DNA from: an uncultured Ruficoccus sp.
Lineage (GTDB): Bacteria > Verrucomicrobiota > Verrucomicrobiia > Opitutales > Cerasicoccaceae
Assembly: GCA_965140785.1 (NCBI GenBank)
Contig: OZ223514.1
Location: 180,289-244,288, forward strand
Direction of reading: 5' to 3'
Length of the DNA: 64,000 nt
Part shown: piece by piece, positions 3,915 to 47,916 of the stretch
How positions within the stretch are numbered: the stretch's first letter is position 1
How the letters are laid out: the number at the start of each line of letters is the position of its first letter
The notes under the pieces: generated by a model
What the model saw: only the letters and a program-made list of their open reading frames with translations
Told to the model about the DNA's origin: nothing
The model's database searches: none
Made by a program: the position numbers and the translations under genes

Positions 3915-5138
3915 CTACGGGGTGGAGCTGGAAGAGGCGGAGCACGATTCCTGCGCTGCGGTCATCAGCCAGTCGCTGCCGGTTTCGGAGAGCACGGTTC
4001 CGGTCTCATGGGCTTGAAGTAATTGCCGGTCCAGCCCGCGCACGTAGTGGTACGGATCGCCTTTGAGCGTGCCCGTTTCTATCTGTTCGGCCGGGAAGTC
4101 CCTGATCGCCAGGTCTGCATGAAGCCTCGTTACAAAGCGCGTATGCGCTGCGGCCAGTTCGAGGGTGCAGCAGTCGCCCGTGCCTCCGGTCAGACGGCTG
4201 AAAATGGTTTCGAACATCTCCCGGCGCGGATCTATTTTTTCCGATTGGCTGGCCTCTTCCTCGCCGCCGATAAGGCGATAGTTTTCATTCTCGTACCACT
4301 GGAAACGCCCGTTCTCGCAGATGACTTCGATCGTGGGCCGGTGCCGGGCTTCGGTGGAATGGCTGAAGTTGAAGATCAACTCGATGCCGTTTTCGGTTTC
4401 CATGCGGGCCGAGAATGTATCGAAGCTCTCAATCGCCTGAGCGCGGTAGGCCTCGATGTCCTGCTGGACGACGCTAGCGGTGTCGGAGAGTGTTTTGCCG
4501 CCCAGGAACAACGGCATCATGACAAAGTGCGCCATGGCATTGTTGACGGGAGAGTCCAGTACGGGCTGATTCCCGACGTACAGTTTCCCCGCCCAGGCAT
4601 TGCGCGTGTAGTAACGGGTGGATCGTGGCCACAGCGCCAGGGCTTTGATGGTTTTGACACGCCCGAACTCTCCCCCCACCAGACGCGCCTTGGTCTCCCA
4701 GAGGCTTTTCGAATACATGTTCTGGAAGCCGACGTAAACCTTCTTGCCGCAGCGGTCGCGGGCGTCGGTCATTGTGCGGACCTCCTCCAGACTGGCGGTG
4801 AGGGGCTTCTCAACCAGGACATGCATCCCTGCCTCCAGGGCGGCGACTGTCATGCCGCAGTGCAGGTGGATGCTGGTGGGAATGGCGCAGAGATCCACCC
4901 GCCCGGCTTCTGCTTCGATCATCTGGCGGAAATCGCCATAGATGCGACAGCCGATTTGCTCAAGTTTGCGGCAGGTTTCTACGGTTTCATCCGGATTAAT
5001 GACGGTGGCTGCGCAAAGGCGAATGCGTCCCTCCCGGTGATACCCCATCAGCTTGTCGGCATAGAGAGCTCCGTAGCCGGATACTCCTACCAGGGCAAGG
5101 CGGACAGGAGCGGTTGGATTCGTCTGTGTGGCAGGCAT
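3915..5138 (-). CDS. Gfo/Idh/MocA family NAD(P)-dependent oxidoreductase
   Basis: Rossmann-type N-terminus (LVGVSGYG) and HVLVEKP motif; paralogue of 23291-24475. Confidence 0.85.
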   Translation of the reverse strand: MPATQTNPTAPVRLALVGVSGYGALYADKLMGYHREGRIRLCAATVINPDETVETCRKLEQIGCRIYGDFRQMIEAEAGRVDLCAIPTSIHLHCGMTVAALEAGMHVLVEKPLTASLEEVRTMTDARDRCGKKVYVGFQNMYSKSLWETKARLVGGEFGRVKTIKALALWPRSTRYYTRNAWAGKLYVGNQPVLDSPVNNAMAHFVMMPLFLGGKTLSDTASVVQQDIEAYRAQAIESFDTFSARMETENGIELIFNFSHSTEARHRPTIEVICENGRFQWYENENYRLIGGEEEASQSEKIDPRREMFETIFSRLTGGTGDCCTLELAAAHTRFVTRLHADLAIRDFPAEQIETGTLKGDPYHYVRGLDRQLLQAHETGTVLSETGSDWLMTAAQESCSASSSSTP

Positions 5139-5234
5139 TTTTCAAGGGAGCGGGAAATGACCAAATGGAAGGGATGCTGAATTTACAGGGGGTCGTTTGG
5201 GAAGCTCGTGGTTGGAGGCGGCGCTCCTGTGTTT

Positions 5235-5966
5235 TTACAGTTGGGCGGGAGCCTCGCTGACAGGTGCTTCCATGATCCTCATATCAGCGCCTTTGAGCTT
5301 GGTGGGGTGAGGCGCGATAAACAGGTACAGGCGGGAGCCGGGTTGCATTCGGATATTTCTCTGGATGAGGGGTATCGCTCTGTTGCTGTCATCGTCTCTT
5401 GCTACCGCCATTAGGTTGACCCCTCGATTTATTTGCTCCGTTACTCGTATCAATTTAGTGCCATAAGCGGGCAGGCTGATCTGCTCATTCCCGATTTTCA
5501 GGTAAAGCGTCTTCGCGAATAAATTAACAATATACAGGCTCTGTGGCGGGAAGGCGCTCAGGCTGTTGTCAAACGCCCAGCCCTTAAACCGGATGGGCGT
5601 CACCGACAGGTCGGGAAAGAGCAGGATCGCCGTATCCGGCACCTGGGGGTTGAGCTTGATCGTGGCCGCCGGCGTGGGAGGAGCTTCGGGATTGGGCGGC
5701 TGAAGGTAGAGGGCCAGGTCTTCGGGACCGGCATAGGTGGTGGTTCGGCCGAAGTCTCCGAAGGGGGCTATCGCCTTGGTGACTTGCTCCTGCTTGAGAT
5801 AGTAGAGGTCTATGCCCGCCTTTTCGCCCTCATTCATGATGGGGCGCAGGTTCACCCCGTCGTACCAGACCGCCAGGCTGAGCCGTGTGTGGATGGCCGG
5901 AGGCTCCTGGGCGCTCAGGCTCACGGTAGCCAGCGCGATCAGCAGGTGGGGAAAAAAGTTTTTCAT
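5235..5966 (-). CDS. Exported hypothetical protein
   Basis: 243 aa with a signal-peptide-like start (MKNFFPHLLIALATVSLSA); starts 24 bp after the large PilX-like gene. Confidence 0.7.
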   Translation of the reverse strand: MKNFFPHLLIALATVSLSAQEPPAIHTRLSLAVWYDGVNLRPIMNEGEKAGIDLYYLKQEQVTKAIAPFGDFGRTTTYAGPEDLALYLQPPNPEAPPTPAATIKLNPQVPDTAILLFPDLSVTPIRFKGWAFDNSLSAFPPQSLYIVNLFAKTLYLKIGNEQISLPAYGTKLIRVTEQINRGVNLMAVARDDDSNRAIPLIQRNIRMQPGSRLYLFIAPHPTKLKGADMRIMEAPVSEAPAQL

Positions 5967-5989
5967 CAGTTAATTTCTGGATGCGAAAA

Positions 5990-8900
5990 TCAGAGGGTAT
6001 CGCCATTGAGCCAGCGGAAGGCGACGATGCGGAACTTGCGCCCGAGGGGAGTATTGGCGGCGTTGGCGGGCTCGGCCGGATCCTGCGCGGGGTCTTCGAG
6101 ATAGCTGGGCATACGCTGGACAATGGCCTCGCACTGGGCGGAGGCGATGGTGTTGCCCGTGAGCGGATCGACGCTCTCGCCGTACGCGCGGATGAGAAAA
6201 GAGTCCCCGCGGACCGTGAGGAGGGGGCCCAGCTTGGCCAGCAGATCCGCCTGGCTCAGGTAGCCCGGAGCCTGGCTGGAGCGTAGCCCCAGCGCGGCAT
6301 CGGCAAACGCGTAATCCAGTTCCTCGTGCACGGCCTGGACGGCGTTGGTCGCGTCGGGAGTGGGGTTGATGCCGGCGGGAGCATAATCGACGCCATCGAC
6401 GGTGACCGTCTGTTGCGAGTCGATCGCCGCCTGCAAAAGTCCGCTGAGCTGGTTGCCCGGCACCCCCGAGGCCGGGTCCCGATTGATGAATTCGGCCAGG
6501 CTGGTGAAGGGGCCGCGTTGGCGGATCTGATGCACGATCTGGCCGGCGAGGTTGCGTATCTGCACGTCGCTGAGATCGCGGTAGCCGCGCCAATATTCGG
6601 CAGTGGTGTCGGCATCATCGTCTTCCCCGATGGCATCGCCGGCGGGCAGGGGGCTGCGGGCATAGGCGCTGCCGGTATTCATGGTCAGGCTTTGCTGGCC
6701 GGAGATGGCGTCCTCAATGCGCGTTGGGAACCGGTAGCCGCTGGCCAGCAGGGCGGTCCACGCATCCACGGAGTCGGAGTTGACGTTGAAGGGGCCGTCG
6801 ATCATCAGGTACCCGGCTGCGCGCTCCGGGTCGAGCAGGGTAGCGGTCGCCGGGGGGGTACCGTCCCGGTCCACGATCTGGATGCGCGGGTAGGCCGGAG
6901 TCGCCACGCCGTTCTCATCGGTCTCCAGGGTGGAGAAGAAATAATCGTCCCAGAGCGCCTGGTTCAGCAGGTAGGAAAAATCCTGCAAGCCGTAGTCGGG
7001 CACAGCAGTGGCATTCGCGGGTATCCAGGGGTTGGCGCGGGAGTTCCCCACCGCATAGGTCGGGGCATAGACGCTGGTGGAGAAGTCCACCTGCTGCAAC
7101 TCCGCCAGCGAGGACATCGGCTCGCGGGGGAGATGGAAGAAGACCAGCCGCGGCTCCAGGGATGTGCTGTCGAACATGGCCGGGTCCCAGAGGCTGAAGA
7201 CACCTTTGTACTGCGTATCCGTGTCCGAAAATGGCGATAAAACGGGGGACTGACCGAACTCTGTGATCCCCAGATTGCTTTTGTAGAGTTTTTGTTGGTA
7301 GTTGGAACGCAGGTTGTAGTCGCGCAGGCTGGCAAGCCCTTCATGAGAGGCCGGATGATCATCCTTATTAACGAGGTCGTTGGGCCCCTTGAGGTAAGCA
7401 CCGATATAGTAGGTGGAGCCGGACGACTCGGCGTCATAGGCGACACTCTGCGTGGTGGTCAGCGTGTGGGACCTCATGGGGTTCTCGTTATCGACCAAGC
7501 CGAGGTAAAGCAGCGTTTTGACGGATCCGGCAAGGAGCCTCAACCTGAGAGCGTGTGTGCCGTCCTTCATCTGGTCGTACATCTCGCCGGTCAATGGCTG
7601 GTCGAGCGCGCCACTGATATCCTCCGAAGAGGCGTAGTGGGAGCTCAACGGGTCTTTGACTTCATCCAGGGGCAGGACCCACTGATCGCTTTTGCCGGGG
7701 AGGTCCGTATTATCGGAGAGGGCGAAGACCTTGATTTCTCCCGGTTCGAAAGACGCGGTAAAGCTGACCCGGAATGAGTTTGTACGGAACGTGTTGCCCG
7801 ACGAGTCCGTTGTGTGCCCGGTGAAATCCGGCAACCATTCGTTCAGGTAGTTTCCGTAGTTTTCCTTCCCGTAGGAGGAGCCGGAGTGGGGAGTCAGGAT
7901 CGTTGTGTCACCGCTGGCACCTTCGAGTTCCAGGACCATCGCCGGCTCGCGCTGAGTATTGTTCTTAGTGGGGTCAAATTCGTCGACAGTATAGCTGCCC
8001 CCGCCGGACTCTATCCGAAACGTGTAGGTTTGCGACTTCAGCGGCACGTCATAGGGGTTGAGCATGACAACCACCGGCTCCAGGCGCAGTTCGAGGGGGA
8101 TGATATCGGTGGGCTCATAAACCACGGGCACGGGGGGCTTAAGTGCTACGCTCATGCCCAGTTCCCAGAAAAACACCACCGGTGCGACGCCGTGGCTGTC
8201 CGGAAAATCCATCACCGTCGCCCCGCCGCTGGTGACGGGATTGCGAACGCTCGGTCTGATCCCGTTGCCGTCGATGTCCTTGCTCAGGGCCAGGAAATTC
8301 TCCAGCAGCGCCCAGGGCGGTCCATCGGGATAGATGGTGCCGGGAGGCGCACTCGTCGCGGTCACGAGCGTGGTCAGGTCCTGCTTCAGTCCGCCATCGA
8401 TCACGTTGGTCAGCAAGCCGTAGCTGTAGGCGCTGAGGCCGTGGTAGTGGTCTACCAGATCCTGCTTCGAGGTCAGGAGGGCGGCTTCGGCCAGGGAGGG
8501 CATCGAGCCCAGCTGGGCCCGCATCTTATCGCCTTCCTGACTGGGTTCGGAGGCGACGGCCAGCTCGCTCAAGTCGCTGATGGATGAAACGCCAAATCCT
8601 CTCGGGGCAACGATGGTGGAGCCATCCTCACTGATGTAGCCATTTTCCGTGATCCTCTCGTCGGTTAAGTCGATGCGCGCTTTCTGCGCCAGGTCCGAGA
8701 CCCAAAAGGCGTAGTATCCGCTCGGCGAGTTACCCCCAATGCGGACTTTGGGCGCGTAGCTCTCGCCATCGCCCAAAATGTCCACGCTGTTGGCTGCGTC
8801 GAGCGGGGTCTGCGGAGTTTCATCGCCGGAGACCATCCAGATCGGGGTGCCGGTGCCATCGCTGTTCCAAACGCCCAGCCAGCGGTTTTTTCCCGTCACT

Positions 8901-9184
8901 GCGGTGCTGGTGAGGGAGGCATCCGCCGTGATGACGGTATCCGGACCGAGGTCTTTTTGGACTTCACCGATCGCGACCTTCAGGCCCAGCAGCGCATTGG
9001 CCCGGGCCACGGAGATCTGGTTGACGGTCGACTGGGAGCGTGTCTCGACGGATACGAGCAGGCTCATGCTGAGCATCAGGCTCACCAGCAGGGCGAGTAT
9101 CCCCAGCGAGAGGATCAGCGCGAAGCCGTTTTTACGGTTTCCATTCAGGGAGGAACCGTTTGCGTTGTTGGGGTAGACAAGCAT
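5990..9184 (-). CDS. Large pilus-assembly PilX-like / Verru_Chthon cassette protein A-like protein
   Basis: N-terminal G|FALILSLGILALLVSL pilin-like hydrophobic segment, ARANALLGL, and C-terminal LTVRGDSFLIRAYGE...CEAIVQR...GRKFRIVAFRWL typical of these Verrucomicrobia proteins. Confidence 0.65.
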   Translation of the reverse strand: MLVYPNNANGSSLNGNRKNGFALILSLGILALLVSLMLSMSLLVSVETRSQSTVNQISVARANALLGLKVAIGEVQKDLGPDTVITADASLTSTAVTGKNRWLGVWNSDGTGTPIWMVSGDETPQTPLDAANSVDILGDGESYAPKVRIGGNSPSGYYAFWVSDLAQKARIDLTDERITENGYISEDGSTIVAPRGFGVSSISDLSELAVASEPSQEGDKMRAQLGSMPSLAEAALLTSKQDLVDHYHGLSAYSYGLLTNVIDGGLKQDLTTLVTATSAPPGTIYPDGPPWALLENFLALSKDIDGNGIRPSVRNPVTSGGATVMDFPDSHGVAPVVFFWELGMSVALKPPVPVVYEPTDIIPLELRLEPVVVMLNPYDVPLKSQTYTFRIESGGGSYTVDEFDPTKNNTQREPAMVLELEGASGDTTILTPHSGSSYGKENYGNYLNEWLPDFTGHTTDSSGNTFRTNSFRVSFTASFEPGEIKVFALSDNTDLPGKSDQWVLPLDEVKDPLSSHYASSEDISGALDQPLTGEMYDQMKDGTHALRLRLLAGSVKTLLYLGLVDNENPMRSHTLTTTQSVAYDAESSGSTYYIGAYLKGPNDLVNKDDHPASHEGLASLRDYNLRSNYQQKLYKSNLGITEFGQSPVLSPFSDTDTQYKGVFSLWDPAMFDSTSLEPRLVFFHLPREPMSSLAELQQVDFSTSVYAPTYAVGNSRANPWIPANATAVPDYGLQDFSYLLNQALWDDYFFSTLETDENGVATPAYPRIQIVDRDGTPPATATLLDPERAAGYLMIDGPFNVNSDSVDAWTALLASGYRFPTRIEDAISGQQSLTMNTGSAYARSPLPAGDAIGEDDDADTTAEYWRGYRDLSDVQIRNLAGQIVHQIRQRGPFTSLAEFINRDPASGVPGNQLSGLLQAAIDSQQTVTVDGVDYAPAGINPTPDATNAVQAVHEELDYAFADAALGLRSSQAPGYLSQADLLAKLGPLLTVRGDSFLIRAYGESVDPLTGNTIASAQCEAIVQRMPSYLEDPAQDPAEPANAANTPLGRKFRIVAFRWLNGDTL

Positions 9185-9434
9185 AAATGGTAACTTTCAG
9201 CGTGCTCTATTCCGATGAAAAGTCGAACGGGGCTATTCGTTACCTGTAACGCCCGATGACCTCAACCCATTTGGTTCCTTTAAGACAACCCGCCAGCATC
9301 GATGCCCGCCACGAACTTGGACAGAGTTGACGGACTTTGTCCCGATACGTGTAACGGCAGGGATCGCTGGCGTGTGCCAGCAGTCCTCTTATGGTAGCAT
9401 GCTCAAACTCCCACCCTCTGGAACCCCTGCGTAT

Positions 9435-11480
9435 ATGCCTTCTGTTTTTTTAAGGATTTTTCTTCTTATCCTCTTCATGGCCGCCGTGAGCGACGCCGCG
9501 CAGCCGGATACGGCCGATGGGCCGGTTGTCGTTATGGTCGGCGATTCCACCGTGACGGACGCGTTGTCCTCCCGCGATCAGGCCGGCTGGGGCTGGGCCT
9601 TGGCGCAAATGGCCCAGCCCGGAGTGACCGTTTACAATACCGCCAAGGGCGGGCGCAGCTCGCTCAGCTTCCGCACCGAAGGCCGGTGGGACGAGGCCAT
9701 GAGTCACAATCCGGATTGGGTGCTGATCCAGTTCGGCCATAATGACCAGCCCGGCAAAGGGCCGAAACGCGAAAGCAAGCCGGAGACGGAATATCGCGAT
9801 CACCTGCGCCAGTACATTGCCGAGGCCCGCGAACAGGGGGCCGAGGTTATTCTCCTGACGCCGATCGCCCGCCGGACCTTTGCCAAGGACGGGACATTGA
9901 AGGATAGCCTGGCTCCGTACGCCGAGGCCGTGCGCATCGTGGGAGAGGAGACCGGCACGCCCGTGCTCGACCTGCACGCGCGCAGCATGCAGGAGTACCT
10001 GGCAATGGGTGAGGAGGCGACCGCCCGCCTGGGCCCGCCCGACAAGGCCGTGGACCGGACGCACTTCTCCAAGGCCGGGAGCCAGCAGGTTGCCCTTTGG
10101 GTTTATGATCTTTTGAGCGAGACCACGCCGGAGCTGGCCGCCAGTTTCGACCCCTCCCTGTTTCCTGTCGTGGAGCCGATTTTCCAGATACCGACGCCGG
10201 GGCAAGGGCGGGAAGGCGTCAAGCTGATCCCCGGTCCCTTTGAGGATATCCAGGGCGCGATGGCCGAAGAGGCGGCGGTCAAGGTGGCCGAACCGCTGAC
10301 GCAAGCGGCGCAACTGGAGGCCGGGACACTCTGCTGCTGGTTTTACGTGGACCAGCCCTACCAAAGCGCACCCGGCAACGAGCAGTGGAAGGAGACCGTC
10401 GTTTCCGCGCCCAAGGTCCTCGACCTGACGGTGGGGCTTTGGCCGCAATTCTGGGGCCTGTTTATGAACTGGCGCGGGCCGTACAACTTCGGCGGCTACA
10501 TGCGGATTCAGACGCCCTCGATCTCCGGCCCCGGCTGGCATCACCTCGCGGCGGTCTGGGACACGCAGCGCGGCATCCAGAATCTCTACTTCGACGGTCG
10601 TCCCGCCGGAGCGAATATCCCGACCTACGAGCCCGGCGAGCCGGCCCCGGTTTTTAAGGAAATCGTGGCCAAGCTCCTGCCGACGATCGGGCTGTGCGAC
10701 ATCCGCCTCTACGATCAGGCGCTCGACGAAGAGTCGCTTAATGGGCTTCTATCCGTCCTCTACTCGGGCCAGTCCGATCGTATCCTGGGGGTGGAATCGC
10801 TCGGGGAGATTTCCATCGAGGAGGACAACCTTACGTTGATCTACGAGAATGCCCTGACCTCGGACAAGGGCTCGGCGCAGTGGGTGATGGAAGGACCCGG
10901 CGAAGTCCAGTACACGCCGGACGGGATGCTCATGGAGTCCAGCCGCCCGGAGAGTCGGGACGGACACTTCGTCTATTGGCTGGATAAAAAGCTGCCGGAG
11001 AATTTCGTGGCCGAGTGGAAGGTCAAGGTGCTCAGCGAGTACGGGCTGAACATCGTGTTCTTCTCCGCCACCGGACCCGGAGGGGGTTCCATCTTCGACC
11101 CGTCCGTCGCACCGCGCGATGGCGATTTTAAGCAGTACCACAGCGGCGACATCGACTGCTACCACATCTCCTACTATGCCGACGGGGAGGAGCACCCCGG
11201 GCGCTCGACGGCCAACCTGCGCAAGAACAGCGGCTTTTACCTCGTCTCCAACGGCCCCGAGGGGATTCCGCCGGAGAGTACCGACTTTCATCAGGTCGTC
11301 CTGAAAAAGCAGGGCGGCAAGATCCAGTTGGCGGTGGACGGCAAGTTGTCCATCGACTGGCAAGACGACGGCGAGAGCTATGGCCCCGTGCTCGGGGCGG
11401 GATGGTTCGGACTGCGCCAGATGCGCTGGACCCAGGCCCTCTATCAAGACCTTAAAATTTATGCTCTGAATGAAAATTAA
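9435..11480 (+). CDS. Multidomain protein: rhamnogalacturonan acetylesterase-like SGNH (CE12-like) + LamG-like + YesU/DUF1961-like domain
   Basis: GDSTV, GWG, GGRSS, IQFGHND and DRTHF SGNH blocks; WHHLAAVWD LamG motif; C-terminal YHISYY...NLRKNSGF...GLRQM. Start taken at MPSVF (signal peptide). Confidence 0.8.
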   Translation: MPSVFLRIFLLILFMAAVSDAAQPDTADGPVVVMVGDSTVTDALSSRDQAGWGWALAQMAQPGVTVYNTAKGGRSSLSFRTEGRWDEAMSHNPDWVLIQFGHNDQPGKGPKRESKPETEYRDHLRQYIAEAREQGAEVILLTPIARRTFAKDGTLKDSLAPYAEAVRIVGEETGTPVLDLHARSMQEYLAMGEEATARLGPPDKAVDRTHFSKAGSQQVALWVYDLLSETTPELAASFDPSLFPVVEPIFQIPTPGQGREGVKLIPGPFEDIQGAMAEEAAVKVAEPLTQAAQLEAGTLCCWFYVDQPYQSAPGNEQWKETVVSAPKVLDLTVGLWPQFWGLFMNWRGPYNFGGYMRIQTPSISGPGWHHLAAVWDTQRGIQNLYFDGRPAGANIPTYEPGEPAPVFKEIVAKLLPTIGLCDIRLYDQALDEESLNGLLSVLYSGQSDRILGVESLGEISIEEDNLTLIYENALTSDKGSAQWVMEGPGEVQYTPDGMLMESSRPESRDGHFVYWLDKKLPENFVAEWKVKVLSEYGLNIVFFSATGPGGGSIFDPSVAPRDGDFKQYHSGDIDCYHISYYADGEEHPGRSTANLRKNSGFYLVSNGPEGIPPESTDFHQVVLKKQGGKIQLAVDGKLSIDWQDDGESYGPVLGAGWFGLRQMRWTQALYQDLKIYALNEN

Positions 11481-42310: not shown

Positions 42311-42379
42311 CTAGAGGCTCCCAAGCAGCGCAACCGACGCCACGAGAACGCCCAGATCAAGCGCGGTGGGGTACCCAAG
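42311..42379 (+). pseudogene. Possible IS5-family transposase fragment
   Basis: LEAPKQRNRRHENAQIKRGGVPK resembles the PKQRNxREENxxIKxG segment of IS5 transposases, as recalled. Confidence 0.4.
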
Positions 42380-42460
42380 CGCATCGCCCGAAACTGCCTC
42401 GATATGAAGCAAACGTAAACAGCACGGAGCCGTCACGGGATGCCTCCGAGCTGACCCCAC

Positions 42461-42799
42461 TCAGTTGACTCCGGTCTGCGCGTCGAGCAACTGGTGCAGC
42501 TTCTCCGTTCTCCCGGGCAGGAGGTTTAGGTTGCCTTTGAGGGATTCGGTGAAGGCGTTCTGGAGGGACCAGAGGGTGCGGGGGGTGAAGCAGGCGTGGG
42601 TGGGTTGGCGCCACTCGTGGAGGACTTTGGGGATGTGCTGGTTGGAGCAGACACCCTTGTCCACGGCGCGGATGATGAGGTCGTGGGCGGTGGGGTCGCG
42701 GAGCGGAGTGCGTTTGTAGCGCTCGATGCGGCGGTCTTGTTCATCGAAGCGGGAGACGAGGCGTTGGACGGCTTGATGGGCCAGAGCGCCGAGGTCGCG
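42461..42799 (-). pseudogene. 3' half of a DUF932-family gene (diverged duplicate of 46604-46942)
   Basis: 339 bp colinear with 46604-46942; similarity stops about 11 bp before the first 74-bp element. Confidence 0.8.
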
Positions 42800-42810
42800 A
42801 TTAGGCCCGA

Positions 42811-42884
42811 GGGGGCAGGTCAATAATTTAAATGTTGATTGTTGTCTGACTTGTGTGGTTATTCTAAATTATTGACACGACCTC
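42811..42884. repeat. 74-bp miniature inverted-repeat element, copy 1
   Basis: GGGGGCAGGTCAATAATTTAAA...CTAAATTATTGACACGACCTC, followed by TTCGGCT. Confidence 0.85.
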
Positions 42885-42890
42885 TTCGGC

Positions 42891-43043
42891 TCACAGCAAA
42901 ACTCTGTAGTGAAAAACAACTCAAGTATTCTCCGTAAAAAAATAAACAAAATTGGAAGAGCTAATATGCAGAATGAAATAGCAGCCAAGACATCCAGTGT
43001 CATTAAGGCTGTAGATAAAGCTGTAAATGATAGTAATGATTGA
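42891..43043 (+). pseudogene. Cassette 1 leader: apparent 3' gene fragment
   Basis: 50 stop-free codons in AT-rich DNA from the element boundary (SQQNSVVKNN...KAVNDSND*), ending 30 bp before the next ATG. Confidence 0.55.
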
Positions 43044-43073
43044 CCTCAGAAATTCCACTAATGTACCGTAAAT

Positions 43074-43712
43074 ATGGATGCTATTAATCACATCAAACAT
43101 CTCCATGATGGTCGGCTTAGGGAAATATATGAGGGGGATGCGATCTCATTTATTAATAATATTTCAAGTGTTAACGTAAATGGAGAATATGACCTAGATG
43201 ACTATAGGGAATGTGCATTTGGAGAATATTGGAGGAGGAGGATTTTGAGCCGAAAAACACTTGCTTATGATGATATTAGACATATTATTGAATATCGCCA
43301 TTTGTGGGGTTCATTATCCGTGATTGGTGAGTTTGCTAGGCTTGATTTAATAGCCCCATATTTATTAAACGATTTAATAATTAGCAAGGATGAAGACGTT
43401 TGGTCGTATCGGCAAATATCTGCCCGTAAAATCGTTCATACAGTGAAGGCTTTGATAGAAATTGAAAACCACATGGACTGTTTGACGATCATTAGTGCAA
43501 TAGACCGCCTCATCGAACTTAAGAATGTTGTTTGGGCGATTGAGGAGTTGTTGCCGCTATTACCATACAGTTGCTTGTGTTATCTTTATAACCGACTTAC
43601 AAAAGAAAAAATATTAACTCGTTCTCACCGAGGTCATTTGAATTCTCTTATAAAAAAGGTACTGCAGGAGAAAACCCAGAAGGAGTCAAATCCAGGAGGG
43701 CCATGTCAATAA
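43074..43712 (+). CDS. Cassette 1 ORF, AT-rich hypothetical protein (212 aa; candidate immunity protein)
   Basis: Long ORF in AT-rich DNA between elements 1 and 2; its TAA is supplied by element 2 (CCA TGT CAA TAA). Confidence 0.7.
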   Translation: MDAINHIKHLHDGRLREIYEGDAISFINNISSVNVNGEYDLDDYRECAFGEYWRRRILSRKTLAYDDIRHIIEYRHLWGSLSVIGEFARLDLIAPYLLNDLIISKDEDVWSYRQISARKIVHTVKALIEIENHMDCLTIISAIDRLIELKNVVWAIEELLPLLPYSCLCYLYNRLTKEKILTRSHRGHLNSLIKKVLQEKTQKESNPGGPCQ

Positions 43713-43770
43713 TGTAAATGATGGTTGTTGTCTGACTTGTGTAGTTATTCTGAATTATTGACATGACCCC
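43697..43770. repeat. 74-bp miniature inverted-repeat element, copy 2
   Basis: AGGGCCATGTCAATAATGTAAA...TGAATTATTGACATGACCCC; core TTGTTGTCTGACTTGTGT shared with copy 1. Confidence 0.85.
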
Positions 43771-43814
43771 TTCGCTTGACCCCTTCGCTTTCAATTGACC
43801 CCTTCGCTTTCAAT
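43764..43814 (+). repeat. Junction tandem repeat: 13 nt + 2 x 19 nt
   Basis: TGACCCCTTCGCT / TGACCCCTTCGCTTTCAAT / TGACCCCTTCGCTTTCAAT. Confidence 0.9.
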
Positions 43815-43976
43815 GGGCCAAGGGTAAATATGGGGGGGGCTCCCTACTTTAAATTTAAGTGGTCAGAAGTACGTTTTGAAAACTATATTACTGAGGAGAT
43901 TCCTCGTTCATCGATAAGGCTGCCTTCAGGATTTGATATGTGGAGAGCGATATTTGGTCAGCGAAAAATTAAATAG
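43815..43976 (+). pseudogene. Cassette 2 leader: apparent 3' gene fragment
   Basis: Frame open from the repeat (GPRVNMGGAPYFKFKW...MWRAIFGQRKIK*), ending 24 bp before the next ATG. An internal ATG means it could instead be a small ORF. Confidence 0.5.
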
Positions 43977-44000
43977 GTGTAAGCTTTAAATTAGTGTAAT

Positions 44001-44333
44001 ATGACAGTTGTTGTTTGGGCTTTACTTTCGTTATTCACGGTCAAGATCATTTGGAATCTTTGCGTGCCCTATATACTTTTAATGCGGTTCCGAAAGGAGC
44101 CTGACAAAGAAACTGGTTGGATTTCCATGAAAATTGTGGTCGAAATTTTTCTTTTGCTGCTGGCTGTGGGTATGTCGGCGCTGAGCACTGGCCAGGCCTT
44201 GGTAAATAAACCGCTAACTGTAGCAAAATGGGGTATTATTGCTATTATATTTACCTATTTACATTTATTTATTGTTTGCGGTATTGGGGGATGGATAATT
44301 AAAGTGTTTTATTCACAAGATAAGAAGGGATAG
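44001..44333 (+). CDS. Cassette 2 ORF, small three-TM membrane protein (candidate immunity protein)
   Basis: 110 aa, three hydrophobic helices, AT-rich; stop lies 2 bp before the junction duplication. Confidence 0.7.
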   Translation: MTVVVWALLSLFTVKIIWNLCVPYILLMRFRKEPDKETGWISMKIVVEIFLLLLAVGMSALSTGQALVNKPLTVAKWGIIAIIFTYLHLFIVCGIGGWIIKVFYSQDKKG

Positions 44334-44335
44334 AG

Positions 44336-44373
44336 GAAGCGCTCGAAGGGGTCAGAAGCGCTCGAAGGGGTCA
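44336..44373 (+). repeat. Junction tandem repeat: 2 x 19 nt
   Basis: GAAGCGCTCGAAGGGGTCA repeated perfectly at 44336-44354 and 44355-44373. Confidence 0.9.
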
Positions 44374-45367
44374 TGTCAATAATTTAAATATTGATTAGCC
44401 CCTGTGTTTGTGCTGAGGTGTGCGTATGGCAAGGGCTGTTCGCTTTCAGTTTCCGGGTGCGATTTACCATGTGCTCAATCGTGGGAACTACCGTAAGGAT
44501 TTGTTTACGGCGGGTGAGAGCGGGGCATGGTTTGTGCGGGCGCTGCAGGAGGCCAGTGAGCAGTGTGGCTGGCGTGTCCATGCCTACGTGGTGATGAGTA
44601 ACCACTATCACCTGGTGGTGGAGACGCCGGAGCCGAACCTGGTCGATGGGATGCATTGGCTGCAAACGACGTTTGCGAGCCGCTTCAATCGCTCGATGGG
44701 CGAGCGCGGGCATGTGTTTCAAGGCTGCTACAAGGCGCTGCTGGTGGCACCGGGTCCTCACTTTACGGGGGTGGTCAATTATGTGCATCTCAACCCCGTA
44801 CGCGCGGGCCTATGCACGCTGGAGGATTTGAGGAGCTATGGCTTGGGCAGCTATGGCCACTTTTTTCGCAAACATCGTCCCGACTGGCTGGTGCGCGCGG
44901 AATTCCTCGGCCAACTGCACCTGCCCGACAGCCTGAAAGGGATGAACACTTACGCAAAAATGCTAGCATTGGCCGATGAGCAAGACCCCGAAAAACGGGC
45001 GTCGCTGAGTCGCGAATATTGCCGGGGCTGGCTGATCGGTGACAAGGCCTACCGCGAGCAAGTCCTGGAGCGCATGAACAAGCATGAGTTGCGGGGGAGC
45101 CACTGCGGTGACGATGTCCGCAACCTCAACGAGTTTCGTTGGGAACAGGCGCTGGCAGAACAACTCAAGCAGCACGAAAAATCGTCAGAAGACATTGCCC
45201 GCGCCCCCAAGGCCGCCGATTGGAAAATCGCAATCGCCCGGCACATGCGCACCCACACCCGCGCCACCAATCCCTGGCTGGCAAAAAAGCTCTCCATGGG
45301 CCACCCCTCACGCGTCAGCAACTTGATATACAATCGCGACATTTAAATTATTGACATGACCCCTTCG
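44363..45367 (+). mobile_element. RAYT-like HUH transposase element bounded by perfect 27-bp inverted repeats
   Basis: CGAAGGGGTCATGTCAATAATTTAAAT (44363-44389) and its exact reverse complement (45341-45367). Confidence 0.85.
44426..45346 (+). CDS. REP-associated-type tyrosine transposase (Y1/HUH, IS200-like fold) with C-terminal HTH-like extension
   Basis: MARAVRFQFPGAIYHVLNRG, HUH motif MSNHYHL, HVFQGCYKA and catalytic YVHLNPVRAG; GAGGTG RBS; the stop codon lies inside the right inverted repeat. Confidence 0.9.
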   Translation: MARAVRFQFPGAIYHVLNRGNYRKDLFTAGESGAWFVRALQEASEQCGWRVHAYVVMSNHYHLVVETPEPNLVDGMHWLQTTFASRFNRSMGERGHVFQGCYKALLVAPGPHFTGVVNYVHLNPVRAGLCTLEDLRSYGLGSYGHFFRKHRPDWLVRAEFLGQLHLPDSLKGMNTYAKMLALADEQDPEKRASLSREYCRGWLIGDKAYREQVLERMNKHELRGSHCGDDVRNLNEFRWEQALAEQLKQHEKSSEDIARAPKAADWKIAIARHMRTHTRATNPWLAKKLSMGHPSRVSNLIYNRDI

Positions 45368-45418
45368 GCTGATTCGAACTAATTCAAGAATAGATATAGA
45401 TATAACCTAATAATAATA

Positions 45419-45685
45419 ATGGATTATTTAATCGCTATAAATAGGATATTTTTTTCTTTGACGGTTGTGTATTGGTATAATGTTATTATTGATTTTATTG
45501 ATTTTTTCGTAAAATACAATATTGGCCATTGTATATTGCTTGCTGATAATTCGTCTGTATTTTGGCATTCTTACTTTTGGTTGTGCTTTGGGAGTAATTG
45601 TATATTATCGACATTTATTTTTTTAAAATTAAAAAAACACTACTTTATTTTTATTTTTTTATGCGTACCGTATAGTTGGCGATAG
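45419..45685 (+). CDS. Cassette 3 ORF, very AT-rich hydrophobic protein (88 aa; possibly degraded)
   Basis: ORF between the transposase right end and a degenerate left end at 45709; preceded by a short open frame (LIRTNSRIDIDIT*). Confidence 0.5.
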   Translation: MDYLIAINRIFFSLTVVYWYNVIIDFIDFFVKYNIGHCILLADNSSVFWHSYFWLCFGSNCILSTFIFLKLKKHYFIFIFLCVPYSWR

Positions 45686-45708
45686 TTGCGACGCCAGGGG
45701 CAGAAGAT

Positions 45709-45845
45709 GGGGTCGAGACAATAGCTTAAATGTTAGTTGTTTCTGTGTTTGAGTGCTGTTGAGGAGATTTCCTCCTTCATGTTCTCCCAGCTAAAAAGAA
45801 GCCGTCCATGAGAGACCGGCTTCTTTTTAATCATCCCCACCGGGT
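45709..45845. repeat. Degenerate left half-element plus terminator hairpin, a diverged copy of 46431-46557
   Basis: GGGGTCGAGACAATAGCTTAAATGTTAGTTGTTTCTGTGTTT vs GGGGTCATGTCAATAATTTAAGTGTTGGTTGTTTCTATGTTT; hairpin at 45793-45828 matches 46508-46542. Confidence 0.75.
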
Positions 45846-45859
45846 GCGACGAACCTGAA

Positions 45860-45933
45860 GGGGTCGGGTCAATAATTTAAATGTTGATTACTGTTTGACT
45901 TGTGTAGTTGTTCTAAATTATTGACATGACCCC
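45860..45933. repeat. 74-bp miniature inverted-repeat element, copy 3
   Basis: GGGGTCGGGTCAATAATTTAAA...CTAAATTATTGACATGACCCC, followed by TTCGGCT. Confidence 0.88.
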
Positions 45934-45941
45934 TTCGGCTT

Positions 45942-46025
45942 TGCACAATTAACGTACATTATGTGATGAATACTAAAACTAGCCAAGTTGATGATCTTAA
46001 AATCTTTTTAGCAGGAGTGCGATAG
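45942..46025 (+). pseudogene. Cassette 4 leader: C-terminal fragment resembling a polymorphic-toxin tip
   Basis: CTINVHYVMNTKTSQVDDLKIFLAGVR*; its TAG ends 1 nt before the next ATG. Confidence 0.6.
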
Positions 46026-46026
46026 T

Positions 46027-46410
46027 ATGAAAGTTGAAGTAATTGAAAATAACTTTAGCGGCTGTCCTCCAGAATTGAAAACGTCTGGGTTTACGGCTGA
46101 AACTTTAGTTGATTTAAGCATCGGTGAGGAGCTTAATGTGTATGGTATGTCAGTGTTTTATGGCGTAGTTTTCGTTCTAATTAAAGATCATAGTGGCATC
46201 TATTCTTGGATGCCGAATTGGCTTTTTAAAGTGTTGGATGGTCGGTTCCCTAAGGATTGGGTATCAAACTTCTTTCATGATAACCCAAGTTGTATCATTG
46301 GGCCGGAGATAATTGCCTCTGACCTTGAAAGATATAGTCGATTTATTGAGCAAGACCCTGACCTTGTTACGAAGATGAACCTGTGGGTTGACTCAATGGA
46401 GTCGGGGTAA
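46027..46410 (+). CDS. Cassette 4 ORF (127 aa), candidate immunity protein
   Basis: AGGAG RBS; LSIGEELNVYG...WMPNWLFKVLDGRFPKDW pattern recalled from small proteins encoded behind Rhs-type toxins. Confidence 0.7.
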   Translation: MKVEVIENNFSGCPPELKTSGFTAETLVDLSIGEELNVYGMSVFYGVVFVLIKDHSGIYSWMPNWLFKVLDGRFPKDWVSNFFHDNPSCIIGPEIIASDLERYSRFIEQDPDLVTKMNLWVDSMESG

Positions 46411-46430
46411 CCCCATTGGGGGTCACTAAA

Positions 46431-46472
46431 GGGGTCATGTCAATAATTTAAGTGTTGGTTGTTTCTATGTTT
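46431..46472. repeat. Left half-element closing the array
   Basis: GGGGTCATGTCAATAATTTAAG, preceded by an extra GGGGTCA at 46419-46425. Confidence 0.8.
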
Positions 46473-46507
46473 CGCTAAATTTGCATCAGCCACGACCTTG
46501 CAGCTAT

Positions 46508-46542
46508 AAAGAAGCCGGCCATGAGAGGCCGGCTTCTTTTTT
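46508..46542 (+). terminator. Intrinsic terminator, probably bidirectional, between the array and the convergent DUF932 gene
   Basis: 13-bp stem AAAGAAGCCGGCC/GGCCGGCTTCTTT, 6-nt loop, T-tract. Confidence 0.75.
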
Positions 46543-46603
46543 ATCATCCCCCCCGGTTAAGACCGAGGAGCGGAGTTGCGAGAGTCCTCCGGGCTGAGCC
46601 TTC

Positions 46604-47360
46604 TCAGTTGAGCCCGGCCTGGGCGTCGAGCAGTTGGTGGAGGCGCTCGGTTCTCCCCGGCAGGAGGTTGAGGTTGCCTTTGAGGGCTTCGGTGAAGGCG
46701 TTCTGGAGGGACCAGAGGGTGCGGGGTTGGAAGCAGGCGTGAGCCGGGTGGCGCCACTCGTGGAGGACTTTGGGGATGTGCTGGTTGGAGCACACGCCTT
46801 TGTCCACGCTGTGGATGATGAGGTCGTGGGCGGTGGTGTCTCGGAGCGGACTGCGCTTGTAATGTTCGATGCGGTGATCTTGTTCATCGAAGCGGGAGAC
46901 GAGGCGTTGGACGGCTTGATGAGCCAGTTCGCCGAGGTCGCGCAGGATGAACCGGGTGTGTTTGCGGGCCAGCTTGATTTCTCCGGTGAAGGCGAGGTTG
47001 CTGCACACCAAGACCTGGGTGCTGGCGACGATGCCAGCGGGGAAGGTCTTGTCGTGGGAGTTGCGGATGCCGACGACCCAGCGGTAATCCCGGGCGGTGT
47101 CGCCTGCGCCGATTTCCAACAAGCCGAAGAAGCGGGTGGCTTCGCGGTTGAGGGCGTAGGCGGAGTTGACGATGGGGAGACCCGCGTTCGAGCAGGGCGA
47201 CCTCGACCGCGTTGAGCACGGTGAGGTGCGGGACGGGTTGCCACGTGCGGGTGGAAGGAGGCGTCGGGGCCTCCGCGATCCGGCTGCGGCTGACGGCGCG
47301 ATCGCCGCAATGCAGCAGGAGGTTGCACCGGTTGGGTTTGGCCTCCAGCACGATTGCCAT
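46604..47360 (-). pseudogene. DUF932-family gene with a +1 frameshift near 47180
   Basis: AGGAGG RBS and ATG at 47360 (MAIVLEAK...VALLERG); continues in another frame as LPIVNS...IRNSHDKTFPAG...VCSNLAF; length 757 = 3n+1. Confidence 0.75.
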
Positions 47361-47393
47361 AGAGGGCCTCCTTTCTTTGTGACCTGCGAAAGC

Positions 47394-47426
47394 AAAAAGG
47401 CCCGGATTCAGGTCGTAATCCGGGCC
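47394..47426 (-). terminator. Terminator-like hairpin just upstream of the DUF932 RBS
   Basis: Minus strand GGCCCGGATT-8nt-AATCCGGGCC-TTTTT. Confidence 0.55.
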
Positions 47427-47840: not shown

Positions 47841-47916
47841 TGGTGGAGCCGATCGGGATCGAACCGACGACCTCGTCATTGCGAACGACGCGCTCTTCCA
47901 ACTGAGCTACGGCCCC
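47841..47916 (-). tRNA. tRNA-Ala (anticodon CGC)
   Basis: GGGGCCGTAGCTCAGTTGGAAGAGCGCGTCGTTCGCAATGACGAGGTCGTCGGTTCGATCCCGATCGGCTCCACCA; 76 nt cloverleaf, G3-U70 pair, encoded CCA. Confidence 0.97.

Follow-up and report, generated by a model that had tools for sequence, protein, structure and literature searches.

What gathers short, AT-rich and mutually unrelated genes around a transposase, and does the transposase itself do the gathering? This question is raised by a locus in a 64,000-nucleotide stretch of the genome of an uncultured Ruficoccus sp. (GenBank assembly GCA_965140785.1, contig OZ223514.1, forward-strand positions 180,289 to 244,288), hereafter the window. According to our analysis, the transposase gene belongs to a TIRtron, that is, a TIRYT gene within GGGGTCA-type terminal inverted repeats (TIRs, here called arms), and this TIRtron appears to sit inside an array of small foreign cassettes of conflict-related genes. 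We suggest that the arms act as junctions for the gain and replacement of such cassettes, most likely through the action of TIRYT on single-stranded arm hairpins, a reading whose chances we put at close to even, slightly on the doubtful side.

The window sequence contains an intact Y1/HUH transposase gene enclosed by perfect 27-bp inverted repeats, of which the L arm, CGAAGGGGTCATGTCAATAATTTAAAT, occupies 44363-44389 and the R arm, its perfect reverse complement, 45341-45367. A repeat finder revealed three mini-elements of ~82 bp each (42810-42891, 43696-43777 and 45859-45940), with a mutual similarity of 84-89%, in each of which a conserved 28-nt spacer separates a left from a right arm; left arms without a partner occur at two more places (about 45709-45740, degenerate, and 46429-46455). 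The 14-mer arm core, with up to 3 mismatches allowed, has 14 matches in the window against 2.0 expected (0 of 100 shuffles reached 14), and 11 of them fall within 42819-46452. Between the repeats lie four modules of 345-812 bp with a GC content of 0.28-0.41, compared with 0.59 for the genome. In all four the longest open reading frame (ORF) is on the plus strand, and no similarity was detected among the modules or to modules at other loci. A first-pass annotation of this DNA, made from the sequence alone, had described the same architecture: the transposase gene within its perfect repeats is present nearly to the base, and the three mini-elements, the two half-elements and the four unrelated plus-strand modules were all recovered. 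Folded as single-stranded DNA, the mini-elements are predicted to form long hairpins (z from -2.6 to -7.2). The parts of the array and its borders, in window positions, are as follows.

42436..42810, minus strand: 3' part of a truncated DUF932 gene (ORF 42461-42823; DUF932 E = 0.003; 87.5% amino acid identity to the intact copy)
42807..42888, plus strand: mini-element 1 (arms L 42811-42833 and R 42862-42884, with a 28-nt spacer between them)
42889..43696, plus strand: cassette A, GC 0.37 (ORF 43074-43712, 212 aa, with its final codons and stop inside the next L arm)
43697..43774, plus strand: mini-element 2 (L arm 43697-43719, R arm 43748-43770)
43771..44362, plus strand: cassette B, GC 0.41 (66-aa ORF 43776-43976 starting from the R arm; 110-aa hydrophobic ORF 44001-44333)
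44363..45367, plus strand: TIRtron (L arm 44363-44389, TIRYT coding sequence 44426-45346, R arm 45341-45367)
45368..45708, plus strand: cassette C, GC 0.28 (88-aa hydrophobic ORF 45419-45685)
45709..45858, plus strand: degenerate L-arm half (45709-45731) and a relic of an "L arm-terminator" junction
45856..45937, plus strand: mini-element 3 (L arm 45860-45882, R arm 45911-45933; hairpin z -7.2)
45938..46430, plus strand: cassette D, GC 0.40 (ORF 46027-46410, 127 aa)
46431..46563, plus strand: solo L arm (46431-46453), decayed interior and terminator hairpin (46508-46539)
46604..47395, minus strand: intact DUF932-like gene bordering the array
47841..47916, minus strand: tRNA-Ala(CGC) gene adjoining the DUF932 gene (context only)

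The enzyme at the centre of the array has 306 residues (ATG at 44426; stop at 45344-45346, inside the R arm) and matches Pfam Y1_Tnp (E = 4.4e-9); its score for NCBIfam REP_Tyr_transpos, 64.4 bits, lies under the cut-off of 80. It contains the sequences SNHYHLVV, VFQG and NYVHLNPVRAG, and the motifs NH[YF]H, FQG and Y[IV]HLNPVR are invariant in 16 of 16 aligned homologues, with N59, H60, H62, F98, Q99, G100, Y119, H121, L122, N123 and P124 as the invariant residues. The best structural match of the AlphaFold model (predicted local distance difference test score, pLDDT, 83.5) is the Escherichia coli RAYT, a transposase associated with repetitive extragenic palindromes (REPs), in complex with a REP hairpin (4er8, E = 2.7e-6); next come the transposases of ISDra2 and IS608. 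The C-terminal extension of ~170 residues is conserved and helical; searches with the C-terminal 166 and 65 residues gave no relevant Pfam match to a helix-turn-helix (HTH) domain, even at E up to 10. The 27-bp TIR begins with GGGGTCAT in the window and with GGGGTCAG in most homologues and in a second TIRtron copy, which is 99% identical and located at C10:480074-481079 of the same genome. The enzyme gene is intact and recently duplicated and, judging from the invariant motifs, the structural match and the 99% identity of its two copies, it looks active. Homologues with 37-55% identity occur in other Verrucomicrobiota, mostly Opitutales, with flanking TIRs that also begin with GGGGTCAG; an exact-seed search detected TIRs of at least 15 nt at 17 of 27 homologous loci, and two more were found with mismatches allowed.

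Genes of this type are already on record. RAYT-like genes with long terminal inverted repeats sharing GGGGWSAS have been named TIRYTs and the corresponding elements TIRtrons, the TIRs of which can form moderately abundant families with single, dimeric and grouped copies (Di Nocera et al., 2013; PMC3733652). Quentin et al. (2018; PMC6006769) equated TIRYT with their TnpA-Y1 subclass 2.1, which has the same Y1 motifs (NH[YF]H/NHVH; FQ or W[EQ]; Y[IV]HLNP) and a C-terminal HTH-like extension of the Bac_DnaA_C, HTH_23 or HTH_28 type, and which is carried by 14.9% of strains; the sections of that paper dealing with this subclass give it no repeat partner and no role. Since the Y1 motifs, the flanking GGGGWSAS-type TIRs and the TIR repeat family fit TIRYT, the enzyme and the ends of the window are a TIRtron with its TIRYT (subclass 2.1), and the initial view that no characterised system could be named does not hold for them. 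The mini-elements are internal-deletion derivatives of the TIRtron, resembling miniature inverted-repeat transposable elements (MITEs); those of one congener (G003) have 181 bp and keep 112 bp of the TIRtron 5' end and 71 bp of its 3' end. Two other identities were considered and rejected. Assignment to the RAYT/REPtron type disagrees with arms that have no internal palindrome except ATTTAAAT, with 32 copies instead of hundreds and with two enzyme copies; for IS200/IS605, the NF033573 score is 18.6 bits versus a cut-off of 55, TIRs are present and the element contains no tnpB-like ORF.

Is the arrangement peculiar to the window? We called arms with up to 5 mismatches in 23 positions in the genome to which the window belongs (G000; 4.36 Mb in 50 contigs) and compared it with four congeners (G001-G004). 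The genome contains 32 arms at 8 loci, including the second TIRtron copy, and 7 of the 8 adjoin AT-rich modules; genome-wide scatter of the repeats, which the first-pass annotation had named as a sign against its proposal, was not observed here. The outer 300 bp have less than 45% GC at 23 of the 32 arms, compared with 5.1% of all 300-bp windows in the genome. At the same time, arms are present in only 9 of the 276 AT-rich islands and in none of the three largest that were examined (30-35 kb), so the arms are not attracted by AT-richness as such. All 10 full dimers, i.e., mini-elements, are in arrays and none is in normal intergenic DNA; several solo arms occur besides. In three of the four congeners the same arms lie beside short AT-rich modules, so the layout recurs in relatives as well; dimers occur in congeners too. 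A DNA search of the congeners with the whole array recovered the transposase and the arms only, and the four cargo modules gave no match. The array loci share neither an integrase nor a resolvase, the sole Phage_integrase match being a 60-aa fragment at C10b.

Some observations on the same assemblies may be added. The second TIRtron copy is located in a defence island (L024, G000:C10:476001-488000, about 5100-10200), which holds a PtuA/PtuB-like pair of ATPase and HNH genes (weak matches), an N6_N4 methylase, a resolvase and a 60-aa integrase fragment; a search for the empty site of this copy gave only its right flank, in one congener. Very large AT-rich stretches without arms (13-35 kb, <45% GC) are found in G000 on C9, C20, C28, C41 and at C39:275300-305800, and may represent other mobile elements or foreign contigs in the assembly. 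Contigs of G003 with 100% identical ends and different continuations were not used as evidence of mobility, as strain heterogeneity and repeats are indistinguishable there.

The cassettes share a common anatomy. Cargo is always on the outer (GGGG) face of an arm, and the inner (TTTAAAT) face leads to the transposase, a spacer or decayed transposase sequence. Four genomes contain 17 closed arm-to-arm intervals, of which 16 have 345-1027 bp and a GC content of 0.28-0.48; the remaining one has 2944 bp and carries an IS3-type insertion. This is the C39 cassette (L027), in which an IS3-family (rve) transposase gene lies at 6192-7112 of the locus and accounts for the unusual 2.9-kb length. In all 10 closed cassettes of G000 the longest ORF is on the strand running from the left to the right arm, and in 9 of the 10 the right arm is L-type. 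Several cargo ORFs enter the L arm and end at its TAA, toxin remnants start at R arms, and at one locus (L043) an ORF is cut by the arm. In single cassettes, the outer arm motif is repeated in tandem at either end, as 2-4 inverted copies fused to a tail that is specific to the cassette; a distant relative shows the same. In the window this is seen at cassette B, with TGACCCCTTCGCT(TTCAAT) at 43758-43808 and GAAGCGCTCGAAGGGGTCA twice at 44336-44373. The cassette junctions are thus both illegitimate and exact. In G002, a lone cassette lies within GC-rich host DNA between two solo arms whose outer faces are directed towards the cargo (C11), an arrangement that is hard to obtain by simple insertion of a mini-element. 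The last module of the C39 locus (8668-9442) is open-ended: it runs from an R arm and no closing arm was found; its ORF "MTPSG..." looks like a toxin C-terminal domain and overlaps a Kelch-like ORF. As for expression, a promoter-like TTGACA-17-CACAAT (45921-45949) begins in the R arm before cassette D; a good outward match was found at only one R arm, and the scan gave 11 sites overall against 5.9 expected, which is too weak to claim arm promoters.

What do the cassettes carry? Wherever the cargo is recognisable, it is related to conflict and consists of polymorphic-toxin immunity genes or of toxin-tip remnants together with immunity genes. In G000 these are Imm30, DUF4274 beside a remnant of an AHH nuclease, a Sel1-repeat protein, DUF3997 and a HEPN protein; in the congeners they are Immunity protein 22 (DUF4284), DUF2750 and an Imm74-like protein with a score under the threshold. 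One array lies directly downstream of a gene for a 1514-aa RHS-repeat protein with an Rhs core (C10:290071-295800; RHS repeats, E = 3e-52; Rhs core TIGR03696, E = 3.9e-13), and the first module after this gene contains a homologous toxin-tip remnant and a small membrane protein. The array of the window has no adjacent toxin gene, and only its cassette B has the look of a tip with its immunity gene, similar in layout to the toxin-tip and immunity module at C10:294942-295453. For the cassette A protein, a protein atlas search was uninformative and a word-index homologue search returned the protein itself only. The latter was also the case for the cassette D protein, for which the atlas gave only unnamed clusters; an exhaustive search placed it in a widespread family with 274 representatives, of which the 10 looked up gave no useful name, and none of 48 aligned members had a Pfam match. 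Its model (pLDDT 96) is an SH3-like barrel with only weak matches (Foldseek E of 0.08 or more; VIA Z of 5.5 or less), and no homologue was found in the other 400 Opitutales genomes searched.

The content of the arrays differs between species at orthologous sites, as the first-pass annotation had expected of a working capture system. One such site in the genus follows a HAD-like gene, with flanks that are 81-91% identical. In G000 this gene is followed by three cassettes and then by an L arm with a decayed transposase 5' end; in G002 by one cassette, different from those of G000; in G001 and G004 by 320-360 bp, with an arm-like 20-mer just past the stop codon in G001; and in G003 by unrelated DNA. 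The arm adjoining the HAD-like gene looks orthologous in G000 and G002, with different cargo beside it. Beyond the arm-like 20-mer, no meaningful alignment was obtained between the "empty" spacer of G001 and the array borders of G000. Turnover is also seen at five other loci, in Opitutaceae, which have a ribonucleotide reductase (RNR) gene on one side and the TIRtron on the other; their flanks are 76-89% identical, the cargo is unrelated, and extra direct L arms stand after modules. The RNR loci contain the following.

L043: almost empty, with a single ORF interrupted by the arm
L037: an additional L arm with a heparinase-like gene behind it
L047: SMODS+SLATT_4, a gene for a Rieske-FMN reductase and one for a CAP protein, with a direct L arm after each
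L048: an N6_N4 methylase module, then an L arm
L049: a single AT-rich ORF of 653 aa

The ORF that reads into the TIRtron L arm in L043 (9696-9968, 90 aa) resembles, by eye, what we take to be an N-terminal piece of a DUF262-type defence gene. At a further locus (L052), a TIRtron lies downstream of two ORFs, one with RHS repeats and a length of 3040 aa or more, the other small and AT-rich.

The borders of the window array have a history of their own. The whole array is enclosed by a direct repeat of the 3' part of the DUF932-like gene, a feature absent from the first-pass annotation, with copies that are 86-88% identical: the left copy (42436-42810) ends exactly at the first mini-element, and the right copy (46579-46953) belongs to the intact gene. 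The stretch at 45709..45858 is homologous to 46431-46563 (74% over 136 nt, including the hairpin at 45793-45829), and the "L arm-terminator-DUF932" junction is also present in a congener. DUF932-like genes are multi-copy in the genus (in the window, on the G003 contigs L018, L019 and L021 and in G001 L013 and L014), and their 3' ends border arrays via a conserved junction made of an L arm, ~100 bp with a terminator and DUF932. Beside the DUF932 copies, the stretches 42314-42388 and 47338-47376 of the window recur at many contig ends of G002 and G003 with 83-97% identity, which suggests a further repeated element that breaks these assemblies.

We interpret these data as follows. Each cassette is bounded by the outer faces of two arms and usually reads towards an L-type arm, and neighbouring cassettes are joined by an "arm-spacer-arm" mini-element, that is, a gutted TIRtron. 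The arms would be the points where cassettes enter, leave or give way to others. The likeliest route is that TIRYT cleaves single-stranded DNA at, or close to, the GGGGTCA end of an arm and transfers the strand, with arm pairs folded into hairpins at this site; the process may resemble the one-ended or end-skipping mobilisation of other HUH elements. The product favoured by selection would be a stock of orphan immunity and defence genes. The anatomy of the arrays, their recurrence, the types of cargo, its turnover at fixed arms and the intact, duplicated enzyme gene are seen directly in the sequences; that TIRYT and no other process makes the junctions, and by which chemical steps, is what we infer from them. 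A broader version of the proposal is that TIRYTs, a large class of Y1/HUH enzymes, run a gene-capture platform for single-stranded DNA, in effect an integron built on HUH chemistry with the arm hairpins as recombination sites. Immunity and defence genes of foreign origin would become attached to an arm, be stacked one-way beside a vertically inherited TIRYT locus and be exchanged between strains. We regard this version as possible and rather doubtful.

Several results weigh against capture by the enzyme. In metagenome contigs, a scan for the exact arm returned 27 stretches, mostly from one organism with 68-70% GC, in which the arm is virtually the same as in the window (an exact 21-mer is shared) and TIRYT is 54-55% identical. 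Here the arms form 45-60-bp perfect palindromic dimers located just after the stop codons of ordinary GC-rich genes, mostly without a GC dip or low-GC cargo; thus, arms can spread alone as REPIN- or MITE-like elements. The dispersed, cargo-free mini-elements that the first-pass annotation had considered contrary to its proposal are therefore present in this lineage and absent from the window's genome. Mini-element spacers are specific to an array and common to its members, which fits local copying of a resident element better than sites brought by each cassette. The RNR-proximal border of the RNR loci has no arm. None of the five cargo ORFs of the window has a Pfam or NCBIfam match, and the label "immunity" for its four cargo genes is an analogy with other loci. 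No identical cassette was found in two different arm contexts. Polymorphic-toxin loci of the Rhs type or of contact-dependent inhibition (CDI) accumulate variable AT-rich orphan modules without any such enzyme. Finally, two public runs of one study, which hold 0.96 and 0.41 of the sampled words of the window stretch as short assembled contigs, contained no clean joint of an excision junction or circle. One reproduces the window in pieces that break at repeats, and the other extends over the transposase, DUF932 and a portion of cassette B, leaving cassettes A and D almost or wholly uncovered; all joints either have 28-nt sides or derive from another mini-element copy, and they speak neither for nor against excision or strain differences. 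The suggestion that the HUH nuclease captures and stacks genes between its recognition sites has therefore stood in part: the punctuated, co-oriented layout of cassettes was confirmed, and capture by the enzyme is an interpretation of that layout, as no excision product, circle or twice-placed cassette came to light.

Two details of the metagenome contigs may be noted. In some copies of the palindromes (L067-L092) the arms are fused via a shared ATTTAAAT, and other copies have a central GC-rich mini-hairpin. In the 68-70% GC organism the arm is far better conserved than the transposase.

The alternative that survives best is that the TIRtron and its MITEs are passengers. Orphan toxin/immunity and defence islands would vary on their own, through displacement of Rhs tips, homologous recombination or other mobile elements, and the TIRtron and MITEs would insert into these islands or persist nowhere else, for instance at the 3' ends or terminators of genes or by local hopping, and move no cargo. 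This would account for the near-identical, cargo-free dimers behind ordinary genes in the other organism, for mini-elements that are plain deletion derivatives (the 181-bp form), for the array-specific spacers that local hopping predicts, for the array at a classical Rhs orphan position and for the second TIRtron copy (C10:480074-481079), which sits in a defence island with neighbours that have no cassette arms. It agrees less well with the confinement of all 10 full dimers of G000 to arrays and the lack of arms in the largest AT-rich islands, with lone cassettes enclosed by inward-facing solo arms, with an ancestral arm that adjoins different cargo in two species, with the uniform polarity of genes relative to arm type in 9 of 10 closed G000 cassettes, and with the inverted tandem copies of the outer motif at both ends of single cassettes. 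On balance, we consider passenger MITEs unlikely, although a serious competitor of arms as cassette junctions.

Host homologous recombination is a less probable explanation. The arms and mini-elements would serve as portable handles of 27-80 bp by which arm-flanked cassettes from related strains are swapped without catalysis by TIRYT. Conservation of the arms beyond that of the enzyme (an exact 21-mer versus 54-55% identity in TIRYT) is in line with this, as are the relics of rearrangement (a second copy of the "L arm-terminator" junction and the direct repeat of DUF932) and the replacement of cargo beside a conserved arm. However, such swapping leaves unexplained how foreign genes were first joined to arms, with cassette D having no homologue in the other 400 Opitutales genomes, and also the exact truncation of ORFs at arm ends and the tandem duplications of the outer motif; moreover, 27 bp is short for efficient RecA exchange. 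We therefore judge it improbable as the main process. That another recombinase or a larger mobile element, for instance one with the multi-copy DUF932 gene, builds the arrays with the TIRtron as a bystander is very improbable: DUF932 genes or fragments do border arrays in G000 (C43 and C10c), G001 and G003 with the conserved "L arm-terminator-DUF932" junction, and the tRNA-Ala gene lies 450 bp past the DUF932 gene, but the array loci have no integrase or resolvase in common (only the 60-aa Phage_integrase fragment at C10b) and DUF932 is absent from the HAD-like, Rhs and RNR loci.

If the tie between TIRYT ends and variable conflict-gene cassettes is consistent, it would provide a biological role for a common class of enzymes and a second, mechanistically unrelated route to the integron-like stockpiling of genes. 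It would likewise account for the way in which Opitutaceae build up orphan immunity genes against the toxins of their neighbours. Even if the TIRtron and MITEs are passengers, the arm repeats can serve in practice to locate islands of immunity and defence genes in Verrucomicrobiota.

How does the window system compare with those already known? It shares with the described TIRtrons the RAYT-like Y1 gene, the long TIRs beginning GGGGWSAS, the motifs NH[YF]H, FQ and Y[IV]HLNP and the long C-terminal extension (PMC3733652; PMC6006769), as well as TIR copies that also occur alone, as dimers or in groups and in moderate numbers (PMC3733652). The difference concerns the cargo: the accounts of TIRtrons and of subclass 2.1 in these two papers describe none between the TIRs (PMC3733652; PMC6006769), whereas here nearly all TIR copies frame short foreign cassettes, and conserved TIRYT loci hold different cargo in different species.

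Among other systems with HUH enzymes, REPtrons combine a single-copy RAYT with hundreds of short palindromic REPs that carry a 5' GTAG or similar tag; IS200/IS605 elements have an IS200-type TnpA, subterminal hairpins and no TIRs, and often carry tnpB. As far as the parts of the RAYT literature on REPtrons and REPINs extend, the window resembles these in the fold of its Y1 enzyme, closest to the E. coli RAYT, in inverted-repeat doublets that form hairpins, and in the dispersed dimers, which occur in one related lineage; it differs in arms without a GTAG-tagged REP hairpin, in two enzyme copies and in ~10 dimers, not hundreds, all of them in arrays (Nunvar et al., 2010; Bertels and Rainey, 2011; Ton-Hoang et al., 2012). 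The ISCR/IS91 and Helitron-type elements offer another parallel, as their HUH enzymes pick up adjacent genes by missing an end, a possible analogy for the solo direct L arms of L047. These elements use Y2/Rep-type rolling-circle transposases with distinct ori and ter ends and no TIRs; the window, in contrast, has a Y1 enzyme with TIRs and no evidence of rolling-circle transposition.

Orphan toxin-immunity modules are known downstream of rhs and cdi genes, and the stack of AT-rich toxin-tip remnants and immunity genes behind the Rhs gene at C10:290071-295800 is of this kind. Here, however, the bounds are transposon arms and not remnants of the Rhs core, and most arrays, that of the window included, are away from a toxin gene. 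The rAID (recombinase-associated acquired interbacterial defence) arrays of Bacteroidales likewise bring together orphan immunity genes that act against interbacterial toxins, and a recombination enzyme is associated with them; in the portion of the preprint that presents them, this enzyme is a tyrosine recombinase (Ross et al., bioRxiv 10.1101/471110), whereas the array loci of the window have none and their repeats are transposon ends. Identity with rAID was rejected: immunity families are present at sister loci, but a tyrosine recombinase is not.

A further likeness is with integrons and with clusters of attC sites lacking integron integrases (CALINs). Integrons rely on the tyrosine recombinase IntI, an attI site, cassette-specific attC sites and excised circular cassettes. 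The window has in common with them rows of cassettes of 0.3-1 kb that point the same way, mostly hold one gene and are poor in promoters, imperfect inverted repeats between the cassettes that form hairpins as single strands, and an enzyme gene that is often at one end. Its enzyme, in contrast, is of the HUH/Y1 type and its separators are near-identical resident repeats in place of cassette-specific attC; no equivalent of attI or Pc and no circular cassette was seen. Identity with integrons was rejected, as the array loci contain no Phage_integrase-family gene except the 60-aa fragment at C10b. Our literature search, outside which most subscription journals lay, found no described link between Y1, RAYT or TIRYT ends and immunity or defence cassettes. 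The enzyme and the ends are thus already known; what is new here is their association with cassettes of cargo, and the layout of these arrays may represent a new way of collecting defence genes.

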